Positions 3,845-63,221 of a stretch of 64,000 nucleotides of DNA are shown piece by piece. How positions within the stretch are numbered: the first letter of the stretch is position 1; every line of letters begins with the position of its first letter. Made by a program: the position numbers and the translations under genes. The notes under the pieces were generated by a model. It made no database searches. It had not been told where the DNA came from and worked only from the letters and a program-made list of their open reading frames with translations. Origin of the DNA: Candidatus Omnitrophota bacterium (GTDB lineage Bacteria; Omnitrophota; Gorgyraeia; Zapsychrales; Zapsychraceae); NCBI GenBank assembly GCA_029261065.1, contig JAJDCB010000030.1, forward strand, positions 196,876-260,875, read 5' to 3'.

Positions 3845-3995
3845 TCCTCGCTGGAGTTTACCCCATGGATTCCCGCTTTTGCGGGAATGTCAGATGGGGA
3901 GGGGATGACAAATCCTTGTCATTCCCGTGAGTTTGTCATTCTCGAGAGCTTGTCATTCTCGCGAGTTTGTCATTCCCGCGAAAGCGGGAATCTAT
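3845..3995. repeat. REP-like element family A cluster (several GTCATTC units)
   Basis: GTCATTCCCGCGAAAGCGGGAATC plus degenerate GTCATTCTCG copies; inverted partner GGATTCCCGCTTTTGCGGGAATG. Confidence 0.85.
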
Positions 3996-10099: not shown

Positions 10100-10195
10100 A
10101 AGCGAGTGATAGAGTGCTAGAGTGATAAAGTGGTAGGTTGAGTTTTTATTAACAATTTTTATTATCACTTTATCACTCTAGCACTTTACCACTAA
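10100..10195. repeat. inverted array of 8-mer units (GAGTGATA/CACTCTAC family B) forming a long hairpin
   Basis: left arm GAGTGATAGAGTGCTAGAGTGATAAAGTGGTAG, right arm ATCACTTTATCACTCTAGCACTTTACCACT; located between aceF stop and lpdA start. Confidence 0.8.
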
Positions 10196-14359: not shown

Positions 14360-14389
14360 AGGAATTCCTTATGATTGGTTATAATGATT

Positions 14390-14484
14390 AGAGTGATAGA
14401 GTGGTAAAGTGATAGAGTGGTAAGAATTGCGGAATTAACTCCATACTATCACTTTATCACTCTACCACTTTATCACTTTTTTTG
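14390..14484. repeat. family B 8-mer inverted array followed by T7 run
   Basis: AGAGTGATAGAGTGGTAAAGTGATAGAGTGGTAAG ... TATCACTTTATCACTCTACCACTTTATCACT TTTTTTT; sits in the aceE 5' region. Confidence 0.8.
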
Positions 14485-14599: not shown

Positions 14600-14735
14600 T
14601 GCCTTGCATGTTATTCGTGCCCTGTATGTCATTTCCGCCCCATATGTCATTCCCGCGAAAGCGGGAATCTCCTGGAGCCAAGTTTGTTATAAAACCCTAT
14701 TTCAGATCTCGGATTAAGTCTGGTACGACAAGCTC
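14600..14735. repeat. REP-like element family A with TGTCATT tandem units
   Basis: TGTCATTTCCGCCCCATATGTCATTCCCGCGAAAGCGGGAATC + AGATCTCGGATTAAGTCTGGTACGACAAG. Confidence 0.85.
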
Positions 14736-19616: not shown

Positions 19617-19812
19617 GAGTGATAGAGCTAATTAGTGATAGAGTGGTAGAGTGGTAAGAGGGTATTGAAAAGGAAGTTAGTGATAGGTTCTTATCTATTT
19701 GTAAATATTTAATTTAACACCAATAAGCATTCAATCAACTCTATCACGTTACCACTCTACCACTCTACCACTCTACCACTTTACCACTTTATCACTCTAT
19801 CACTTAATCACT
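19617..19812. repeat. family B 8-mer arrays in inverted orientation (7 tandem CACTCTAC-like units on right arm)
   Basis: GAGTGATAGAG...GTGGTAGAGTGGTAAG / CCACTCTACCACTCTACCACTCTACCACTTTACCACTTTATCACTCTATCAC. Confidence 0.85.
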
Positions 19813-19846: not shown

Positions 19847-22039
19847 ATGTCAAATCCTAAACTAACCCTTATTAAATCGATTACCTTCTTATCGGCCTTT
19901 TTGATGTTTCAAATTGAGCTTATTATAGGAAAGATTTTTTTGCCAAATTTTGGCGGAAGTTTTGTCGTTTGGGGAGCCTGTGTCGTTTTTTTTCAAGCGG
20001 CATTGTTGTTAGGGTATATGTATTCCCATTGTGTCGTTCAAAAAATAGGTATATATAAATATCGTTATATTCATCTCATTTTATTAGGGCTGCCATTTTT
20101 GTTCTTTCCAGGAAAGCCGTTGGCGATGCGTTATGAGATTAGTACGCTTCCTATGGTTCTTGAAATATTTTTAAAGCTTATTTTTACCATTGGTCCAGCT
20201 TTTTTTGTGCTCTCAACGATGAGCATTATTTGGCAGGCATGGTTGTCACAATCCACTATTGAAGAGCGATCAAATCCGTATACTCTCTTTGCCGTTTCCA
20301 ATTTTGGCTCTTTTGCAGCTCTTCTTACATATCCTTTTTTTATAGAATCTTATTTAGATCTTTTTCAACAGCAACATATCTGGCGGTGGATGTATGTAGG
20401 AATGTTTTTTCTTCAGGCGCTGGCTTTATTTGTAGTGAATGTCGATAAAAAACTGGATAGCAAGCGTGAGAAGGTTAAGAAAGTCTCTCTCTCTAAAGGA
20501 ATGCCAATCTTAATTTATGGAGCTGCGGGTGTCATGATTTTTTTATCTGTCACAAGCATTATCACAGCCGAGATTGTACCCATGCCTTTGTTGTGGGTTC
20601 TACCGTTAACACTCTATTTGTTTTCTTTTGTTTTGATTTTTAAAAAGAAGTCCTGGGCTCCTGCGTGGATGGTTAAGCGTTTTGATGTGTTAGTAGGGTT
20701 TGCTGTTCTTTTTTATTTTTTTACACAGATGAAGGCCTTTCCTATTTTGTTTGAATTAGCTGTGCTTTTGATGATTACATTTTGGACATGTCTTTACTGT
20801 CAGTATCAGGTTTTTCGTCTTCGCCCTAAAGATTTAAGAAATTTAACATCCTTTTATTTGTATTTGGCTTTAGGTGGGTTCTTAGGAGGTGTTCTTGTGA
20901 CGTGGTTTGTTCCTTTGTTTTCGACGACATTTGTTGAATACTTCTTATCATTTTTTGTTATTTATTTGGCGGGTCTTAAGGATAAATCTTTACGATTAAA
21001 TAAATTTTATGTCGCTCGTCTTTGTCTTTATGTTCTTGCTATTCTTTTTGTCTGGCCTTTGGTGTTTAAGCAGTACAATTTTTGGGGAATGATTTTGATT
21101 ATTGCTGTGATGAGTTTTGCCTTTAAGGAATTAGCTCGGCATCGCTTTGGGATACTTAGCGTATTGTTGATTTTATCTTCTTCTTTAAATGTTCTGGAGC
21201 CGATTTGGAACAAGCAAGTCGACATTTATCGTGATCGTAATTACTATGGTATTAGCAAAATTTCAGAAGAAGAGGGGGTAAGGTATTTTCTTCATGGGGC
21301 AACAATTCACGGGGCGCAATTTTTAAACCCAAAAGGCCTCGATATTCCTTTAACTTATTTTTCATCCACGTCTCCGATTGGAGAAGTTATGCAATCCGAT
21401 AATTTTGATTTTAGAAAAATTGGTGTAATCGGTTTAGGTGTTGGGACGTTAGCTACATATTTAAATGATGGGGAACATCTAGATTTTTTTGAGTTGGATC
21501 CTGATGTTGAAAGTTTGGCGAAGAATTATTTTTCATATTTAAAGAACGCCAAAGGAAAGATTCAACATTTTACGGGTGATGCCCGAATTACTTTAGAAAA
21601 GATGCCGTTACAGAACTATCAATTGTTAGTAGCAGATGCCTTTAGCGGTGATGCCGTTCCTGTCCATTTGATAACAGAGGAGGCTATGCATCTTTATCAA
21701 AAACATTTAGCCCCGGAAGGGTTGGTGTTATTTAACATCACGAATCGCTATATTAATAATCAATACCCCATATTAAGCACGGCTCTTAGTACTGATGCTA
21801 AATTGTGTTATAAGGTTGCAAATTTTGATAGTGTTGTGTTTTTTTCATCCACTTGGGTTGCGGTCACATGGAATGATGAGGTTTATAAGACATTAACAGA
21901 AGAGATGGGGTGGTTAACAGTGGATAAAAATTTGGCAAAAAGGGTAAGAAAATGGAATGATCGATATACGAATATTCTACCTTATGTCAAATTTAAAGAA
22001 CTTGGCTATGCCCTTAAAAATTTTGATTTTTTAAGATGA
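19847..22039 (+). CDS. membrane-anchored spermidine synthase-like (PABS) protein
   Basis: ~12 TM segments then IGVIGLGVGTLATYL...FELDP...GDA...LLVADAFSGD (SAM-dependent aminopropyltransferase fold). Confidence 0.7.
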   Translation: MSNPKLTLIKSITFLSAFLMFQIELIIGKIFLPNFGGSFVVWGACVVFFQAALLLGYMYSHCVVQKIGIYKYRYIHLILLGLPFLFFPGKPLAMRYEISTLPMVLEIFLKLIFTIGPAFFVLSTMSIIWQAWLSQSTIEERSNPYTLFAVSNFGSFAALLTYPFFIESYLDLFQQQHIWRWMYVGMFFLQALALFVVNVDKKLDSKREKVKKVSLSKGMPILIYGAAGVMIFLSVTSIITAEIVPMPLLWVLPLTLYLFSFVLIFKKKSWAPAWMVKRFDVLVGFAVLFYFFTQMKAFPILFELAVLLMITFWTCLYCQYQVFRLRPKDLRNLTSFYLYLALGGFLGGVLVTWFVPLFSTTFVEYFLSFFVIYLAGLKDKSLRLNKFYVARLCLYVLAILFVWPLVFKQYNFWGMILIIAVMSFAFKELARHRFGILSVLLILSSSLNVLEPIWNKQVDIYRDRNYYGISKISEEEGVRYFLHGATIHGAQFLNPKGLDIPLTYFSSTSPIGEVMQSDNFDFRKIGVIGLGVGTLATYLNDGEHLDFFELDPDVESLAKNYFSYLKNAKGKIQHFTGDARITLEKMPLQNYQLLVADAFSGDAVPVHLITEEAMHLYQKHLAPEGLVLFNITNRYINNQYPILSTALSTDAKLCYKVANFDSVVFFSSTWVAVTWNDEVYKTLTEEMGWLTVDKNLAKRVRKWNDRYTNILPYVKFKELGYALKNFDFLR

Positions 22040-22126: not shown

Positions 22127-22542
22127 GGGGGTGACATGGTTTCGACTTGGGTTATCGGAGTTTGAGTGGCATGCGGAGGACGTCTGGTTGGCCTCCTAAA
22201 AAATCCAGGCACACAATAAACGCTAACGATGAAACGTTGACGTTTGCTAGCTTGACTAATTCAACAATGGACAGCGATGTTCCTGTTGAACCATCACTAG
22301 CAACAGCACCAGCCTTATCGGTCTAATTCACTGGTAAGCCCTCTTGTAGCAGGCCTGTGGGTTACAAGTGGAACAAGCAGGCTGGTCTTATAAATTTGCT
22401 TCATTTATAAGATAAGATTTAGAAGCTAGTTTCATTTACGTTTGTTTATTTAGAGAAGTGAAGCGAAATTAAAAATAAACTAAGCATGTAGAAGCTCTTA
22501 CAAAGGAACCAAAGGACCGGGGTTCGATTCCCCGCACCTCCA
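22127..22542 (+). ncRNA. ssrA: tmRNA (transfer-messenger RNA)
   Basis: 5' GGGGGTGACATGGTTTCGAC and 3' GGACCGGGGTTCGATTCCCCGCACCTCCA (T-arm + acceptor) match tmRNA ends; tag frame starts GCT AAC GAT GAA (ANDE...) at 22222, stop at 22324. Confidence 0.85.
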
Positions 22543-22683
22543 TTTAGTTGTAGTGCATCTCCACCCCATTGAGGTGCATAGGCTTATGATAGTATATTGT
22601 TTTAATTCTCGATTGGTGCCCATTTAGTGCCCAAAGTATCACATTTTTCTTGCATTCATTCTATTGACTATTATAATAAACCC

Positions 22684-57542: not shown

Positions 57543-60500
57543 ATGAAAGAATTAAAAGATTCCACACATTGGTTTCAATCCAATATTGTAAAAAAGCTTG
57601 AGAAGTTAGAAATGCAATATTGTAAATTGCTTTCCCAGTTTAATCATGAAGTTTTTCTAAATTTAGAACGCGTTGACTCATTAAAAAATATATACTCTCA
57701 AATCTCTCAATACCTTACTCGATTACAAGTCTTTCCAAAAGAACAAGATGTCAAATTTGTGGGAATTATAAAGCGATATTCAAATCATTTTGATTCATTG
57801 CATCAAAATAATTTGCGCTGGATCTATGCGTATTGCGAATTAAGATGGCCTAGTGATGATTATTTATCAAGAAAATTTAAAAAGAAATTAAAGCAAATTT
57901 ATCCAGATGTTGTATTACGGGCTAATAAGTTTTGGTTAAGCGTAGAAACCCTAAAGAAAGAGGATGACATAAATCACTACAAATTTAGTAGGGTCTTAAG
58001 TATTAAAAAAATGAGAGATTCATACGATTATGGTTCCCCTATTTGGCATAAATGGCATAAGCAATTGGTTGTTATGGTTTTTCGTCTAATGTCTGCGAAT
58101 CTTAAGAATAACAGACATCAAATGGATGGCTTGTTTAAAGAAAGCATCTATCAGGAAGTATTAAGTAGTGATGTGCTTAACGGTAAAGAGAATGTGAGCT
58201 CACAGCGTATATCGGGGTTGTTTAATACTGGTTCTCTTACTAATAATTTAATTAAATCTAGGGTGAATCATTGGTTTAAAGGTTACAAAAAATTTAGCGG
58301 AGAGGATGAAAAGCTTATTCATGCGCATGTTCATGGCTTTATAAAAGATGAATTGCAGAAAGGGGAAAGAAATTATTGGAGAAATAAAATTTTTCATTTA
58401 GCAACGTTTTCATTTATTGTTGCTGTGTTAGCTTTAAGTTTATATCAGATTCGAGTTCCACAGGCAATGGCAATGCATACAACCCAGTTTATCAATACTA
58501 TCAAATCTTTTCGAATTTTTACCAAGAAAGAAAATAAAATGCAGCAGTTTTTTCTAAATGAGATGATTACAATGGAATCTGATTATACTCAAGAAGACAT
58601 TCTCTCAAACCTAAAAATATTTAGCGAGGAGGGTTGGTATCTAAAAGAGGGTGGATATTATTATTTTGCTCAGGAAATATTAAAAGGAATGTTGGTATTA
58701 TGGGCAGATGGTCAGTCCAATGATGAGCTTAATGAAGAAGTGATTAAGGCCGCTAACCTTTTAAATGCTGAATTAGGCTCTAATCTAAGCAATATTCTTG
58801 CACTTTATCAAAAAATGTTAATGAGAGAGTCAAAATTAAGAGAAAATATGTTGGAGCTTAGAAGACTTTTCATTAAACAAGGCGTGTATCCATTTATGTT
58901 CCTTGTGCTTAATGATTATTCACCATTTATCTTTATGTATCCTGAGAAAATTATAAATGAATATATTTTTGAAGATGATTATGCCCAAGTTTTGGGTATG
59001 AATGTCGAATATTATTCAAAACTCGAGCATTGGCCTCCAAAAGCGTACGTTCTTAAACCCGACTCCTATCCGTTTGAAAATAAAGCTGGTTATTTTGAGG
59101 GTGAATTTGCTGTTGTTTTTGAAAGTTTTGCAGCTAACGTAAGATGGACCGCTTGGCACGAGCTTGGCCATGTTATTGAGAACTTTAAATATGAGCATGA
59201 ATCAAAACGTTTGTTTGATAATGTCGAGCTAAATGCCATGATTTTTCCTGTGATTTTTGATAAAGATGCAAGGGCCTATCTGACACATTATGTGGTGCCA
59301 TTGGCAGATAGAAAGATGGCGAAGAGTTATTATGGGCAGGCGGCCAAGGGGATTTTAAATGGATTAGTTATTTATGAAAAGTTGCATAATGGTCGTGAGT
59401 TAACACCTCTATTAACGAATCGAATGGAAGAAGATCGTAAAGAAGTTATTAAGAATTACATTTTATCATTAACGTCCAAGGAAATTCGTAAAATCGGGTA
59501 TACGATGTATTTTCATCCAGATCGTTATTTGTATACCACAGAGGCAGGAAAGTACCGGGGGATTGTAACAAATGCAGAAGAAATAATTTTTGGAGCACAT
59601 TCTTCTCCAGAACAAGATGTGGTCATGGCCAGTTCTGGATTAGGAGGTTTCCGACTTGGTTCAAAAATGATTAGAGATGGGGATGGAAGCTCAACGAATT
59701 GGGCCATGCAACAACTCGCTGCTTTTATTGATGCTATTATTGTATTTATTTTATTTGAATCTAGTTTTGTCTTCATGCATATTTTAGGAACGCCCATTCG
59801 TATAAAGAAATTTAAAGGAAGACGCGTTGTTTTAATTTTGAATAACATGTTTAAAAAGAATCAAAGTTCAGATGGTCATGGTTTAGGAGAAGAGGTCGGT
59901 TTAAGGCAATTGTTGACAAAGATTTATGAAAGTCACGGCAATTTTGATCAATCTTTAATAGCAGACATCCAAGCATTCAAACTGACAGCAAATAGTCGAG
60001 ACCTTTTATTGTTTCAGTTGGGCTTAACCTTTGCATCAGAAAATCCAAAAATTTCTGAAATTAAAAATCCATTTCATCTTATTCAATTTTATCTTCCCTT
60101 TTTGGGTCCGTATATTGCTCGTTCTAAATGGTTATATGGAAAACAAAAAGCGTTTGATGAAAGGGAAGTATTTAATAAAAGGTTAGAGCATTTCTTGGTG
60201 TCGCTTGAGAAAGATAAATCTATAGAGGAGGTTTCTAATCAATATAATGAATTGATCAAGCCTTACGCGCAGCCTGGTAAGGAGATGGGGGATAGTCATC
60301 AAATTTTAAAAAATATTAAATTGCTTGAGAAAACGATGTCAGAATTCTTTTTACCGAATAAAGATTCCAGTAGGAAAATAAATGGAGTCAGGTCGAATAA
60401 GAATGGAGAGTCTTTGTTGAAGCGTAATGCAGGAGATATAGATTTTGATCGATTAGAAGTTTATACGCCGGGAGATGATGTGCGAGAAATCGACTGGAAT

Positions 60501-61070
60501 GTTACAGCGCGATCCGCAAAGAATGATGTGATCGTACGAAAGCGAGTAGGACATGAATCGTTTGAAATGAGTTTGTTGTTGGATATGTCTGTACTAAGTG
60601 ATGAAACTTTATTGGAGAGTTGGGTGCAAGATTATTTGATGACGCTCAAATTGCTGGGAAAAGAAAAGAGAATGCAGAAAATCATGATTGTCATGCCCTA
60701 CGGAAAAGTCATTCAAAGAGCCATAAAGGTCAATACTCATCTTGGATTTAGACAAACGGCATTAAAAACTTTTTCTAGATTAAAAGAATATATTTATGAT
60801 GAACTAGAAGGGGAATATCTTGAATCTATCAATGGGCTTAAATTTTATGATGAAGAAGAAAATAATCAATATTTGAAACGCATCAAATTATGCCGATTTA
60901 AGGGAAGGGGAGCGTCGTTGCAAGCGAATGCATTGCGTGGACATCATCAGAATATATTTTTAGTGGGGGTTATCCCCCATAAACGGCTTGACTATGTAAA
61001 GTCATTGGGGCGAACTAACAGTATTTATTTTTGGCATGAACAAAATGCTCAATTAAATAAAATTCCATAA
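57543..61070 (+). CDS. large multidomain protein: N-terminal unknown region, HExxH motif, TM helices, C-terminal DUF58-like domain
   Basis: WHELGHVIENF; DUF58 hallmark YTPGDDVREIDWNVTARS; TM segments near aa 285-305 and 715-740. Confidence 0.6.
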   Translation: MKELKDSTHWFQSNIVKKLEKLEMQYCKLLSQFNHEVFLNLERVDSLKNIYSQISQYLTRLQVFPKEQDVKFVGIIKRYSNHFDSLHQNNLRWIYAYCELRWPSDDYLSRKFKKKLKQIYPDVVLRANKFWLSVETLKKEDDINHYKFSRVLSIKKMRDSYDYGSPIWHKWHKQLVVMVFRLMSANLKNNRHQMDGLFKESIYQEVLSSDVLNGKENVSSQRISGLFNTGSLTNNLIKSRVNHWFKGYKKFSGEDEKLIHAHVHGFIKDELQKGERNYWRNKIFHLATFSFIVAVLALSLYQIRVPQAMAMHTTQFINTIKSFRIFTKKENKMQQFFLNEMITMESDYTQEDILSNLKIFSEEGWYLKEGGYYYFAQEILKGMLVLWADGQSNDELNEEVIKAANLLNAELGSNLSNILALYQKMLMRESKLRENMLELRRLFIKQGVYPFMFLVLNDYSPFIFMYPEKIINEYIFEDDYAQVLGMNVEYYSKLEHWPPKAYVLKPDSYPFENKAGYFEGEFAVVFESFAANVRWTAWHELGHVIENFKYEHESKRLFDNVELNAMIFPVIFDKDARAYLTHYVVPLADRKMAKSYYGQAAKGILNGLVIYEKLHNGRELTPLLTNRMEEDRKEVIKNYILSLTSKEIRKIGYTMYFHPDRYLYTTEAGKYRGIVTNAEEIIFGAHSSPEQDVVMASSGLGGFRLGSKMIRDGDGSSTNWAMQQLAAFIDAIIVFILFESSFVFMHILGTPIRIKKFKGRRVVLILNNMFKKNQSSDGHGLGEEVGLRQLLTKIYESHGNFDQSLIADIQAFKLTANSRDLLLFQLGLTFASENPKISEIKNPFHLIQFYLPFLGPYIARSKWLYGKQKAFDEREVFNKRLEHFLVSLEKDKSIEEVSNQYNELIKPYAQPGKEMGDSHQILKNIKLLEKTMSEFFLPNKDSSRKINGVRSNKNGESLLKRNAGDIDFDRLEVYTPGDDVREIDWNVTARSAKNDVIVRKRVGHESFEMSLLLDMSVLSDETLLESWVQDYLMTLKLLGKEKRMQKIMIVMPYGKVIQRAIKVNTHLGFRQTALKTFSRLKEYIYDELEGEYLESINGLKFYDEEENNQYLKRIKLCRFKGRGASLQANALRGHHQNIFLVGVIPHKRLDYVKSLGRTNSIYFWHEQNAQLNKIP

Positions 61071-61086: not shown

Positions 61087-61548
61087 ATGTCAAAGGCAAC
61101 GTTTGCCGCTGGATGTTTTTGGGGGGTTGAGGAGGAGTTTCGTCAATTAAAAGGCGTGCTCAAAACCCAAGTAGGATATACAGGTGGGCATCTAGAAAAA
61201 CCTACGTATAGGGATGTCTGTACAGGCGCAACTGGACATGCCGAGGCTGTTGAGATTGAATTTGATGACAATATAATATCCTATAAAGAGTTATTAGACT
61301 TTTTTTGGAAAATTCATAATCCTACAACCTTAAATCAACAAGGCCCGGATGTTGGTTCTCAGTATCGTTCAGCTATTTTTACACACAATGAAGAGCAGGT
61401 GAAAATTGCCCAATTATCAAAAGAAGAGCTAAACAATGAAGGTTATTTTCCTGAACCAATAGTTTCTGAGATTTGTGATGTTACAGAATTTTTTCCAGCA
61501 GAAACTTATCATCAGCAGTATGTTGCCAAGCAAAGAGGTGAGTTGTAA
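61087..61548 (+). CDS. msrA: peptide methionine sulfoxide reductase A
   Basis: GCFWGVEEEF...GYTGG MsrA active-site motif. Confidence 0.9.
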   Translation: MSKATFAAGCFWGVEEEFRQLKGVLKTQVGYTGGHLEKPTYRDVCTGATGHAEAVEIEFDDNIISYKELLDFFWKIHNPTTLNQQGPDVGSQYRSAIFTHNEEQVKIAQLSKEELNNEGYFPEPIVSEICDVTEFFPAETYHQQYVAKQRGEL

Positions 61549-61693
61549 CGTGTTACAATGGAACGCTTTGCATATTTTAGTATTGATGGACGCTTCTTTT
61601 TAGAACTATTTGAAGTTTTTGCGAAACTTTTTTCTTCCTTTTGAGTTTAATACATTGAATCCATTCGAAACAATTAAACGTATATAAACCAAA

Positions 61694-61702
61694 GGGGGGG
61701 GG
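61694..61702 (+). repeat. G9 homopolymeric tract inside the RBS of the downstream gene
   Basis: AAAGGGGGGGGGCAATAATG; only long G tract in this AT-rich window. Confidence 0.9.
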
Positions 61703-61707
61703 CAATA

Positions 61708-62067
61708 ATGAGAAAAGAACTTATTGTTTTGGTCTTGTTATCAACAGGTGTTTTTTTTACCGGGACTTCTGAGGCGAGCAAAAAAAGTTCCAAAAAGGAT
61801 GATTATCATTATGGTGTTGGTATAGGCCACGACGGTTTTTATTTTCACGTAAATACTCATCATCCTAAATACTATCCCCGTTATAAAAAGAGATATCATT
61901 ATCCTGAGGGTAGGTATCATCGCAGACATCATCGTAGGGCTTATCGAAAATATAAACGTGTCAGAAGGCATCATCGTAGACACCATCGTATAGATTATTA
62001 CGAAGAGCCTGTTTATCACAATGGTCATTATCACTATTATGACTATGACTATGATTGTGAAAGATAA
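61708..62067 (+). CDS. secreted His/Tyr/Arg-rich low-complexity protein
   Basis: signal peptide then HRRHHRRAYRKYKRVRRHHRRHHRIDYY...YHYYDYDYDCER. Confidence 0.55.
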   Translation: MRKELIVLVLLSTGVFFTGTSEASKKSSKKDDYHYGVGIGHDGFYFHVNTHHPKYYPRYKKRYHYPEGRYHRRHHRRAYRKYKRVRRHHRRHHRIDYYEEPVYHNGHYHYYDYDYDCER

Positions 62068-62090
62068 CGAGTAATATAAATTATAAAAAA

Positions 62091-62127
62091 GGCATAGCCG
62101 ATATTGAAACGGTTATGCCTTTTTTTA
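62091..62127 (+). terminator. rho-independent terminator
   Basis: GGCATAGCCG-ATATTGAAA-CGGTTATGCC then TTTTTTT. Confidence 0.75.
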
Positions 62128-62237: not shown

Positions 62238-62660
62238 TTAACGTTCGTTAAGTATGGATTGAATTTGAGAGATGAGAATTTTAGGGCTTATAGGCTTTGT
62301 TAGGAAATTATCAGCTTCGGATTCAAAACTATCGAGGATGATTTTTGGGGTGTTTTTATTGGTGATGACAATAATAGGAATGTTTTGTGTTCTCTCATCC
62401 GATTTAAGTTCTTTGCAGATATCCAATCCTCTATTTTCAGAAATTTCTAAATCAAGTAATATAAGATGTGGGATATTATTGAATGCCATTTCAAGGGCTA
62501 AAGAGAAATTGTTTGCTGTCAGCGTCAAGTATCCTATTTTTTGAATGATTCTTGAAAACTCGTTAAGATCATCAAGGTTTTCTTCAATAATGAGGATCGA
62601 TAGTTTGGAGTTTTTAACGTTTTTGTTTTTTTTATAAATGGTGGATAGTCTTTTAAACAT
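62238..62660 (-). CDS. single-domain response regulator (CheY-like)
   Basis: LSILIIEENLDD...LILLDLEI... receiver fold. Confidence 0.7.
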   Translation of the reverse strand: MFKRLSTIYKKNKNVKNSKLSILIIEENLDDLNEFSRIIQKIGYLTLTANNFSLALEMAFNNIPHLILLDLEISENRGLDICKELKSDERTQNIPIIVITNKNTPKIILDSFESEADNFLTKPISPKILISQIQSILNER

Positions 62661-62717: not shown

Positions 62718-63221
62718 TTAGTTTAGGTTTTTGGCCGCGGCGGCAATTTTTTTGACCTTATCAACTGGAATGTTCATTTCTTGCGCGATTTCTTCAGGAA
62801 GAGGTTTACGATTGAGCTGTTGGGTTAGTGTATCCACAGAAGAGGTGTATCTATTTAGTTCTGGTTTTAGATATATGGGTATTCCGATCATTTTTCCTTG
62901 GTCAATGATAAATTGGGATAAGCGATGTTTAATGCACCATCGAAGGTAGGTATCTAGAGCGAAACCTTTGCTTGCATCAAACTTTTTAATACTTTCTTCG
63001 ACGCATTCGTTGCCGGCTTCAACGAGATCGTCTAAAGGAATGCCTAGCTGACTATAATTTTTGGCGATTTTGGTAATATATTGTTGATTAAATTGTACCA
63101 TACGATTTTTGGCCTCTAAGTCGCCATTTTTTATTCGATCCACCAATTGTTGCTGTTCTAGAGAGGTTGTAGCTTTTTGCTTTAGGCTAGCATTCTTAGA
63201 GTTTTCATTGGATTTGTACAT
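62718..63221 (-). CDS. sigma-70 family fragment (regions 2-3 only, no region 4)
   Basis: DLVEAGNECVEESIKKFDASKGFALDTYLRWCIKHRLSQFI (region 2.2-2.4), IGIPIYLKPELNRY...PLPEEIAQEMNIPVDKVKKI (region 3); stops before any region 4 HTH. Confidence 0.55.
   Translation of the reverse strand: MYKSNENSKNASLKQKATTSLEQQQLVDRIKNGDLEAKNRMVQFNQQYITKIAKNYSQLGIPLDDLVEAGNECVEESIKKFDASKGFALDTYLRWCIKHRLSQFIIDQGKMIGIPIYLKPELNRYTSSVDTLTQQLNRKPLPEEIAQEMNIPVDKVKKIAAAAKNLN

Follow-up and report, generated by a model that had tools for sequence, protein, structure and literature searches.

A G9 tract best read as the Shine-Dalgarno element of an orphan gene for a predicted secreted protein in a Candidatus Omnitrophota bacterium

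We analyzed a tract of nine consecutive G residues (G9) immediately upstream of a small open reading frame in a 64,000-nucleotide stretch of DNA, referred to here as the window, from a Candidatus Omnitrophota bacterium. We found that the tract is best read as an unusually G-rich ribosome-binding site (RBS) that may be length-polymorphic, and not as an on/off contingency switch. Our preferred reading, that G9 is the unusually G-rich Shine-Dalgarno (SD) element of an orphan gene for a secreted protein, has a probability of roughly 55% in our estimation. The tract would be physically prone to slippage, but a phase-variable switch is neither demonstrated nor well-founded. The features at the center of the analysis are the following.

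61694-61702, + strand: G9 homopolymer (direct reading).
61691-61702, + strand: probable SD sequence AAAGGGGGGGGG, which corresponds to AAGGAGG with G·U wobble and can pair in several equivalent registers (duplex energy).
61703-61707, + strand: CAATA, the constant 5-nt spacer separating the start codon from the tract (direct reading).
61708-62067, + strand: orphan ORF of 119 amino acids, with a predicted secreted, polycationic, His/Tyr/Arg-rich and largely disordered product (ORF listing).

The G9 tract within the probable ribosome-binding site

The tract has AAA on its 5' side and CAATA followed by the ATG (61708) on its 3' side; AAAGGGGGGGGGCAATAATG contains the nine Gs, the spacer and the ATG. 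It is the sole run of G or C of at least 7 nt in the window, in which the next longest runs are 6 nt, including five of G, and the G+C content is 37.5%. The original prediction had placed a G9 tract within the RBS and had called it the only long G tract in an AT-rich window, and it was right on both points, including the coordinates.

The rarity of the tract is modest and barely beyond chance. The number of G runs of at least 9 nt expected per window under a first-order Markov model is 0.12, and two or more G8 matches (the equivalent of one G9) occurred in 16 of 100 dinucleotide-preserving shuffles; several chance tracts of the G9 type would therefore be expected in a genome of a few Mb. Long G/C tracts were not enriched within the 64 kb window when run counts were compared to the Markov expectation, with one G run of at least 7 nt observed compared to 2.1 expected, and no C runs of that length. 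G9 is within the range considered hypermutable by the SSR length criterion (a G/C run of ~7-8 or more), and occasional replication slippage is expected at this length.

Assuming a canonical anti-SD for the organism, the tract is complementary to the 3' tail of 16S rRNA at 5-10 nt upstream of the start codon, and the duplex between the anti-SD and AAAGGGGGGGGG has a calculated energy of -8.2 to -9.5 kcal/mol at aligned spacings of 4-8. Of the 46 gene starts in the window, 14 have a duplex at least as strong as -4 kcal/mol, mostly with an aligned spacing of 3-6, and this SD ranks third strongest. The SD used by other genes in the window is AAGGAG(G). AAAGGGGG would pair with the 16S 3' tail as AAGGAGG does, with one G·U wobble. 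We infer that G9 is the SD sequence itself, and not the spacer, of a genuine orphan small gene. Because the run of Gs is homogeneous, the ribosome could bind in several registers, at distances of 5-9 nt to the AUG. The minimal distance between the SD and the AUG is set by the CAATA spacer and not by the length of the tract. The original prediction located the tract at the very point that determines SD-start spacing; this part of it does not hold, since the tract appears to be the SD and its 3' edge lies 5 nt from the AUG at any length.

The probable orphan gene, its product and its transcription

The discussion of the gene and its surroundings refers to the following features.

57543-61070, + strand: gene for a protein of 1175 amino acids with a short DUF58 match, located 5' of msrA (Pfam).
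61087-61548, + strand: msrA, encoding peptide methionine sulfoxide reductase, the upstream neighbor (Pfam PF01625, E = 6e-65).
61708-61776, + strand: Sec-type signal peptide, residues 1-23 of the ORF product, with predicted cleavage between SEA and SK (inspection).
61741-62034, - strand: antisense ORF of 97 amino acids with a GTG start, judged spurious (codon score -0.156).
62085-62126, both strands: bidirectional intrinsic terminator consisting of A6, GGCATAGCCG, a 9-nt loop, CGGTTATGCC and T7 (fold energy).

The + strand ORF is very probably a real gene, and we would expect it to be expressed. We scored codon usage by log-odds, with 45 long genes from the window as the training set. This ORF scored 0.015, higher than the other five frames and than any of the off-frame controls (maximum -0.034). 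Each of the 45 reference genes scored higher (mean 0.281, minimum 0.126); a low score is expected because the mature part of the product is 52% His, Tyr and Arg. The choice between synonymous codons resembles that of the genome (CAT, 11/16; TAT, 17/19). The antisense ORF was considered as a gene and rejected, based on its codon score and on its Met/Ile-rich product, which is the complement of CAT, TAT and CGT codons. The preference of the original prediction for the + frame over the antisense ORF is borne out by the best codon score, the signal peptide, the ATG, the strong SD and the terminator after the stop codon.

The N-terminus of the product, MRKELIVLVLLSTGVFFTGTSEA, with SKK following the cleavage site, has the characteristics of a Sec (SPase I) signal peptide by inspection. 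There is an n-region (MRKE), an h-region (LIVLVLLSTGVFF) and a c-region (TGTSEA) with small residues at -3 and -1, and inspection of this region revealed neither a lipobox Cys nor a twin-Arg motif. The product would thus be secreted, as judged from this N-terminus. The mature part has 96 residues, including 19 Tyr, 16 His, 15 Arg and 9 Lys, with three occurrences of RRHHR and a YDYDYD tail. It has a mass of 12.5 kDa, a pI of 9.8 and a net charge of about +14. The earlier description of a His/Tyr/Arg-rich product with a signal peptide was therefore accurate. Single-sequence AF2 modeling gave a mean pLDDT of 47, and only two helices were modeled, at residues 2-17 (the signal peptide) and 72-88. 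Together, these properties suggest an exported, polycationic and intrinsically disordered protein, as a prediction from models.

We detected no relatives of the 119-aa product. There were no Pfam matches, the protein found only itself among 5.8 billion proteins and, in an exhaustive phmmer search, only itself among 1.84 billion representatives, and a back-translated scan of JGI metagenome DNA recovered no homologue. There were no other His/Tyr/Arg-rich ORFs within the window. Searches of GTDB genomes and of 5.8 billion proteins likewise recovered no homologue of the 1175-aa protein encoded 5' of msrA, indicating that orphan status is normal for this lineage. Histatins, which are eukaryotic (human), and the cytoplasmic Hpn protein of H. 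pylori are both His-rich and cationic. The product described here is comparable to them in composition only, with a high content of His together with Tyr, Arg and Lys, predicted disorder and plausible metal or polyanion binding; no sequence homology to them was detected in Pfam and protein searches with the product. Binding of metals or polyanions by this protein is a guess from its composition, and an orphan His/Tyr/Arg-rich protein is a minor curiosity.

Transcription of the ORF would probably occur by read-through from msrA, from a weak promoter of its own, or both. A consensus scan of the interval between msrA and the ORF found no convincing terminator and no sigma-70 promoter, so co-transcription is possible. 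At 61612-61645, 3' of msrA, GAAGTTTT-TGC-GAAACTTT makes up a weak, AT-rich hairpin with a T/C-rich run after it, possibly a leaky terminator. The pairing predicted for G9 (see below) involves the pyrimidine tail of this hairpin. We considered TTGAAT-N19-TATATA as a promoter and rejected it, as it is poor by eye and the sigma-70 scan gave no site 5' of the ORF. The same type of scan revealed no recognizable -35/-10 pair enclosing G9. The tract is downstream of any -10-like sequence, and the classical mechanism in which a repeat alters a promoter spacer is therefore not applicable.

The terminator at 62085-62126 begins 18 nt past the stop codon of the ORF. It has a folding energy of -22.1 kcal/mol (z = -5.6), and none of 200 shuffled sequences folded as well. 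It was missed by the consensus scan because its loop exceeds 8 nt. The terminator is common to the + strand ORF and a convergent response-regulator gene (62238-62660, - strand). In Rfam searches of the ORF region, the only matches with an E value of 1 or less were below threshold and centered on this terminator. At the gathering threshold, the only Rfam match was a tmRNA elsewhere in the window (22127-22545, + strand; 179.8 bits), which was not reported by ARAGORN.

Several other features of the window were observed. The response regulator is of the receiver-only type and its gene lies 57 nt after a sigma-70-like ORF (62718-63221, - strand). The product of this ORF has 167 amino acids, with regions 2 and 3 and without region 4 or 1.2, and its only relatives have 270-278 amino acids, all regions and 42-44% identity; the ORF could encode a truncated sigma factor or be a pseudogene. 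The + strand of the window contains 14021 G and 9992 C residues, a GC skew of about +0.17, and nearly all of the long ORFs are on this strand. There are three intergenic elements, each composed of tandem 8-mers (GAGTGATA/GAGTGGTA) in 4-9 copies and an inverse array (TATCACTC/TACCACTC) 25-75 nt later:

10104-10136 and 10162-10193: 8-mer arrays of the first element.
14389-14423 and 14447-14479: 8-mer arrays of the second element.
19634-19664 and 19738-19812: 8-mer arrays of the third element.

The paired arrays form long imperfect palindromes. Two of the elements flank the pdh genes (lpdA, E2, aceE) and the third is 5' of the ORF at 19847-22039. They look like either regulator-site arrays or a hairpin-forming repeat family. 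A second small repeat family may be represented by a 17-bp tandem repeat (TTGTCATTCCCGCGAGT, 3.9 copies, 3916-3981) and a related hairpin (GTCATTCCCGCGAAAGCGGGAATC, 14640-14675) in another intergenic region.

Effect and variation of tract length

We modeled translation initiation as a function of tract length from hybridization and spacing with a Salis-type penalty. The model is crude, and kinetic effects, including ribosome stalling on long SD-like runs and transcriptional slippage, lie outside it. Initiation relative to G9 was 0.88-0.90x for G8, 1.07-1.09x for G10, 0.55-0.60x for G6 and about 0.3x for G5, and there was a substantial drop only at G5 or shorter. In the model, ~7 Gs already saturate the anti-SD. 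When a G is gained or lost, the 3' edge of the tract is still 5 nt from the AUG and the spacing in the best register is constant. With a fixed 3' edge and saturation at ~7 Gs, translation should therefore hardly respond to the gain or loss of one or two Gs, and the translational effect of a change in tract length would be small. None of the variants from G7 to G11 had an in-frame upstream start, a frameshift or an N-terminal fusion. The claim that slipped-strand changes would modulate translation is not upheld by these values.

Folding of the 5' UTR could add to the effect of tract length, by an estimated 2- to 3-fold at most. In short transcripts, the RBS unfolding term differed by no more than 0.3 kcal/mol among G8, G9 and G10. 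Only in the msrA read-through transcript was the RBS with G10 easier to open than that with G9, by ~2.3 kcal/mol, corresponding to ~2.8-fold. The pairing partner in this transcript is the following.

61631-61643, + strand: pyrimidine tract TTTCTTCCTTTTG, the predicted partner of AAAG9 in the read-through transcript (MFE, centroid).

The predicted pairs between TTTCTTCCTTTTG and AAAG9 are mostly G·U, and the fold was not better than those of shuffled controls (z = -1.3 and -1.6). The ORF, promoter-spacer, SD-model and fold checks together placed the tract outside the length-sensitive positions by which a contingency locus is recognized.

Tract length was compared in two assemblies only, the NCBI assembly and the Logan assembly of run SRR15505515, representing one genome and one read set. 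The Logan assembly (contig L001) also has G9, with identical flanks, and it may have reads in common with the NCBI assembly. The Logan contigs in this region are short (4.0 and 1.5 kb). They run straight through G9 and break inside the ORF near position 61890. The break between L001 and L002 is at window position ~61887-61895, with a contig overlap of only ~9 nt, and suggests low coverage or a local variant in the His-rich ORF.

Searches for strains and relatives did not recover additional copies of the locus. An exact-protein look-up with the 119-aa product found no contig, and the ORF product, MsrA and the response regulator are each alone in their 90% clusters. A DNA pattern that allowed a variable-length tract had no matches in JGI metagenomes. 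A search with MsrA found 80 loci from unrelated phyla with no more than 65% identity, and tblastn detected no synteny at these loci; the relatives of the sigma-like neighbor (42-44% identity) are in a different context, with no syntenic locus. The GTDB representatives do not include the source genome, and the other data were limited to the Logan contigs of SRR15505515. This lineage is very poorly sampled.

Known systems and alternative readings

In Neisseria, Haemophilus, Campylobacter and Helicobacter, poly-G/C tracts are found within ORFs, where frameshifts turn expression ON or OFF, or between the -35 and -10 promoter elements, and there are many tracts per genome. The tract described here is like those loci in composition, in a length within the hypermutable range, and in having an exported product (predicted here). 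It is unlike these classical contingency loci in that it is neither in an ORF nor between -35 and -10 elements, and there is one such tract per window, approximately the number expected by chance.

Two described systems are closer. In T. pallidum, the tprL poly-G tract varies from 7 to 11 Gs, mostly 9, within strains. The poly-G tracts of tpr genes and tp0126 are in promoters, with the transcription start site 4 nt downstream or with the tract between -35 and -10, and they act on transcription, with measured variation and reporter effects (PMC7864442). The locus analyzed here is like these in having a run of ~9 Gs close to the 5' end of a gene for a protein with a signal peptide, and in the rarity of such tracts. 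It is different in that the tract lies 5 nt before the AUG, where it would act as an SD, and no promoter could be placed around it; furthermore, tract length varies in T. pallidum, whereas both assemblies here read G9. In M. tuberculosis, insertion in a poly-G tract in the espR 5' UTR raises EspR translation, an effect attributed to folding of the UTR (PMC11898584). The G homopolymer described here is also in a 5' UTR, with a proposed translational effect through folding around the RBS. It differs from espR in that the tract would itself be the SD and the predicted fold is no better than those of shuffled sequences. We found no literature on phase variation through a homopolymer embedded in an SD, and espR and tprL are the nearest cases.

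These comparisons bear on the possibility that the tract is a true contingency locus, in which slippage switches the secreted protein through the geometry of the promoter and transcription start site or through UTR structure, and not through SD-AUG spacing. This seems unlikely to us. G9 is within the range of lengths that varies in known systems (7-11 Gs in tprL; PMC7864442), the product has a predicted signal peptide, as do those of most phase-variable genes, and poly-G tracts just 5' of genes for signal-peptide proteins are phase-variable in T. pallidum (PMC7864442). The precedent of espR (PMC11898584) and the predicted pairing of G9 with the pyrimidine tract, with its ~2.8-fold difference for G10, also fit this possibility. 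Against it, no length variation was observed between the two assemblies, the model gives an SD whose strength and spacing hardly depend on length, the sigma-70 scan placed the tract in no promoter spacer, the z-scores for UTR structure are within -1.3 to -1.6 compared to shuffles, and both the number of G/C tracts in the window and G9 itself are within chance. A working translational or transcriptional contingency switch for the orphan protein in this deep-branching bacterium, operating through pairing with the pyrimidine tract or through the position of the transcription start and not by the classical routes of frameshift or promoter spacer, is, in our view, quite improbable. A change in transcription could also come from reiterative transcription, in which RNA polymerase would initiate in the G tract or at its border (TTGAAT-N19-TATATA at 61656-61686 being one candidate promoter) and stutter on the run of Gs; GTP and CTP pools, and not phase variation of the DNA, would then set the length of the 5' UTR and the level of expression. 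The -10-like sequences TATATA/TATAAA (61681-61688) are 5-7 nt 5' of the tract, and the first base that is not G is a C. Reiterative transcription is known from pyrBI, from codBA and from B. subtilis pyrG (GGGC). There is, however, no acceptable sigma-70 site here, as the -10 is missing its last T and the spacer would be 19-21 nt; there is no attenuator between the tract and the AUG, and no room for one because they are separated by only 5 nt; and nothing connects the gene with nucleotide metabolism. We regard this mechanism as having only the slightest chance of being correct.

Two other readings concern the gene and the tract themselves. The ORF might not be a gene, in which case the 690-nt stretch between msrA and the response-regulator gene would be non-coding (a long msrA 3' UTR or a spacer) or would encode an sRNA, and G9 would be a neutral tract due to chance. 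The ORF is a strict orphan across all of the databases that were searched and has no Pfam domain, its sequence is of low complexity with a codon score under that of every reference gene, no confident fold was predicted, the frequency of the tract is compatible with chance, and no homologue was found by which purifying selection could show. We nonetheless doubt this reading: the probability of an ATG-initiated ORF of at least 119 amino acids in a random 690-nt sequence of the composition of the window is 0.006, the frame scores best of the six and above all off-frame controls, the ATG is behind the third-strongest SD and begins a textbook signal peptide, and there is a strong terminator 18 nt past the stop codon. 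In addition, the Rfam matches in the region are limited to those below threshold at the terminator, and the neighboring 1175-aa gene is an orphan too. The length of the tract could also be an artefact of assembly or sequencing, with a true length other than 9 or apparent variation due to errors of the sequencing polymerase. Homopolymers are prone to error on most platforms, and the short Logan contigs suggest modest coverage. However, two assemblies made with different software have the same G9 and identical flanks, and the k=31 graph spans the entire tract, which is internal to unique sequence and not at the end of a read or contig; an artefact is very unlikely. The reading of G9 as the G-rich SD of an orphan secreted-protein gene is the one that we favor over these alternatives.

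The useful result, as it stands, is a negative one. A homopolymer that is itself the SD cannot alter SD-start spacing by slippage, and an RBS homopolymer of this kind should therefore not be counted as a candidate for phase variation without read-level evidence. If the tract did switch expression, repeat-mediated phase variation would be extended to an unsampled, probably environmental lineage and to a repeat position within an RBS, and the orphan protein would be flagged as a surface or host-interaction factor.
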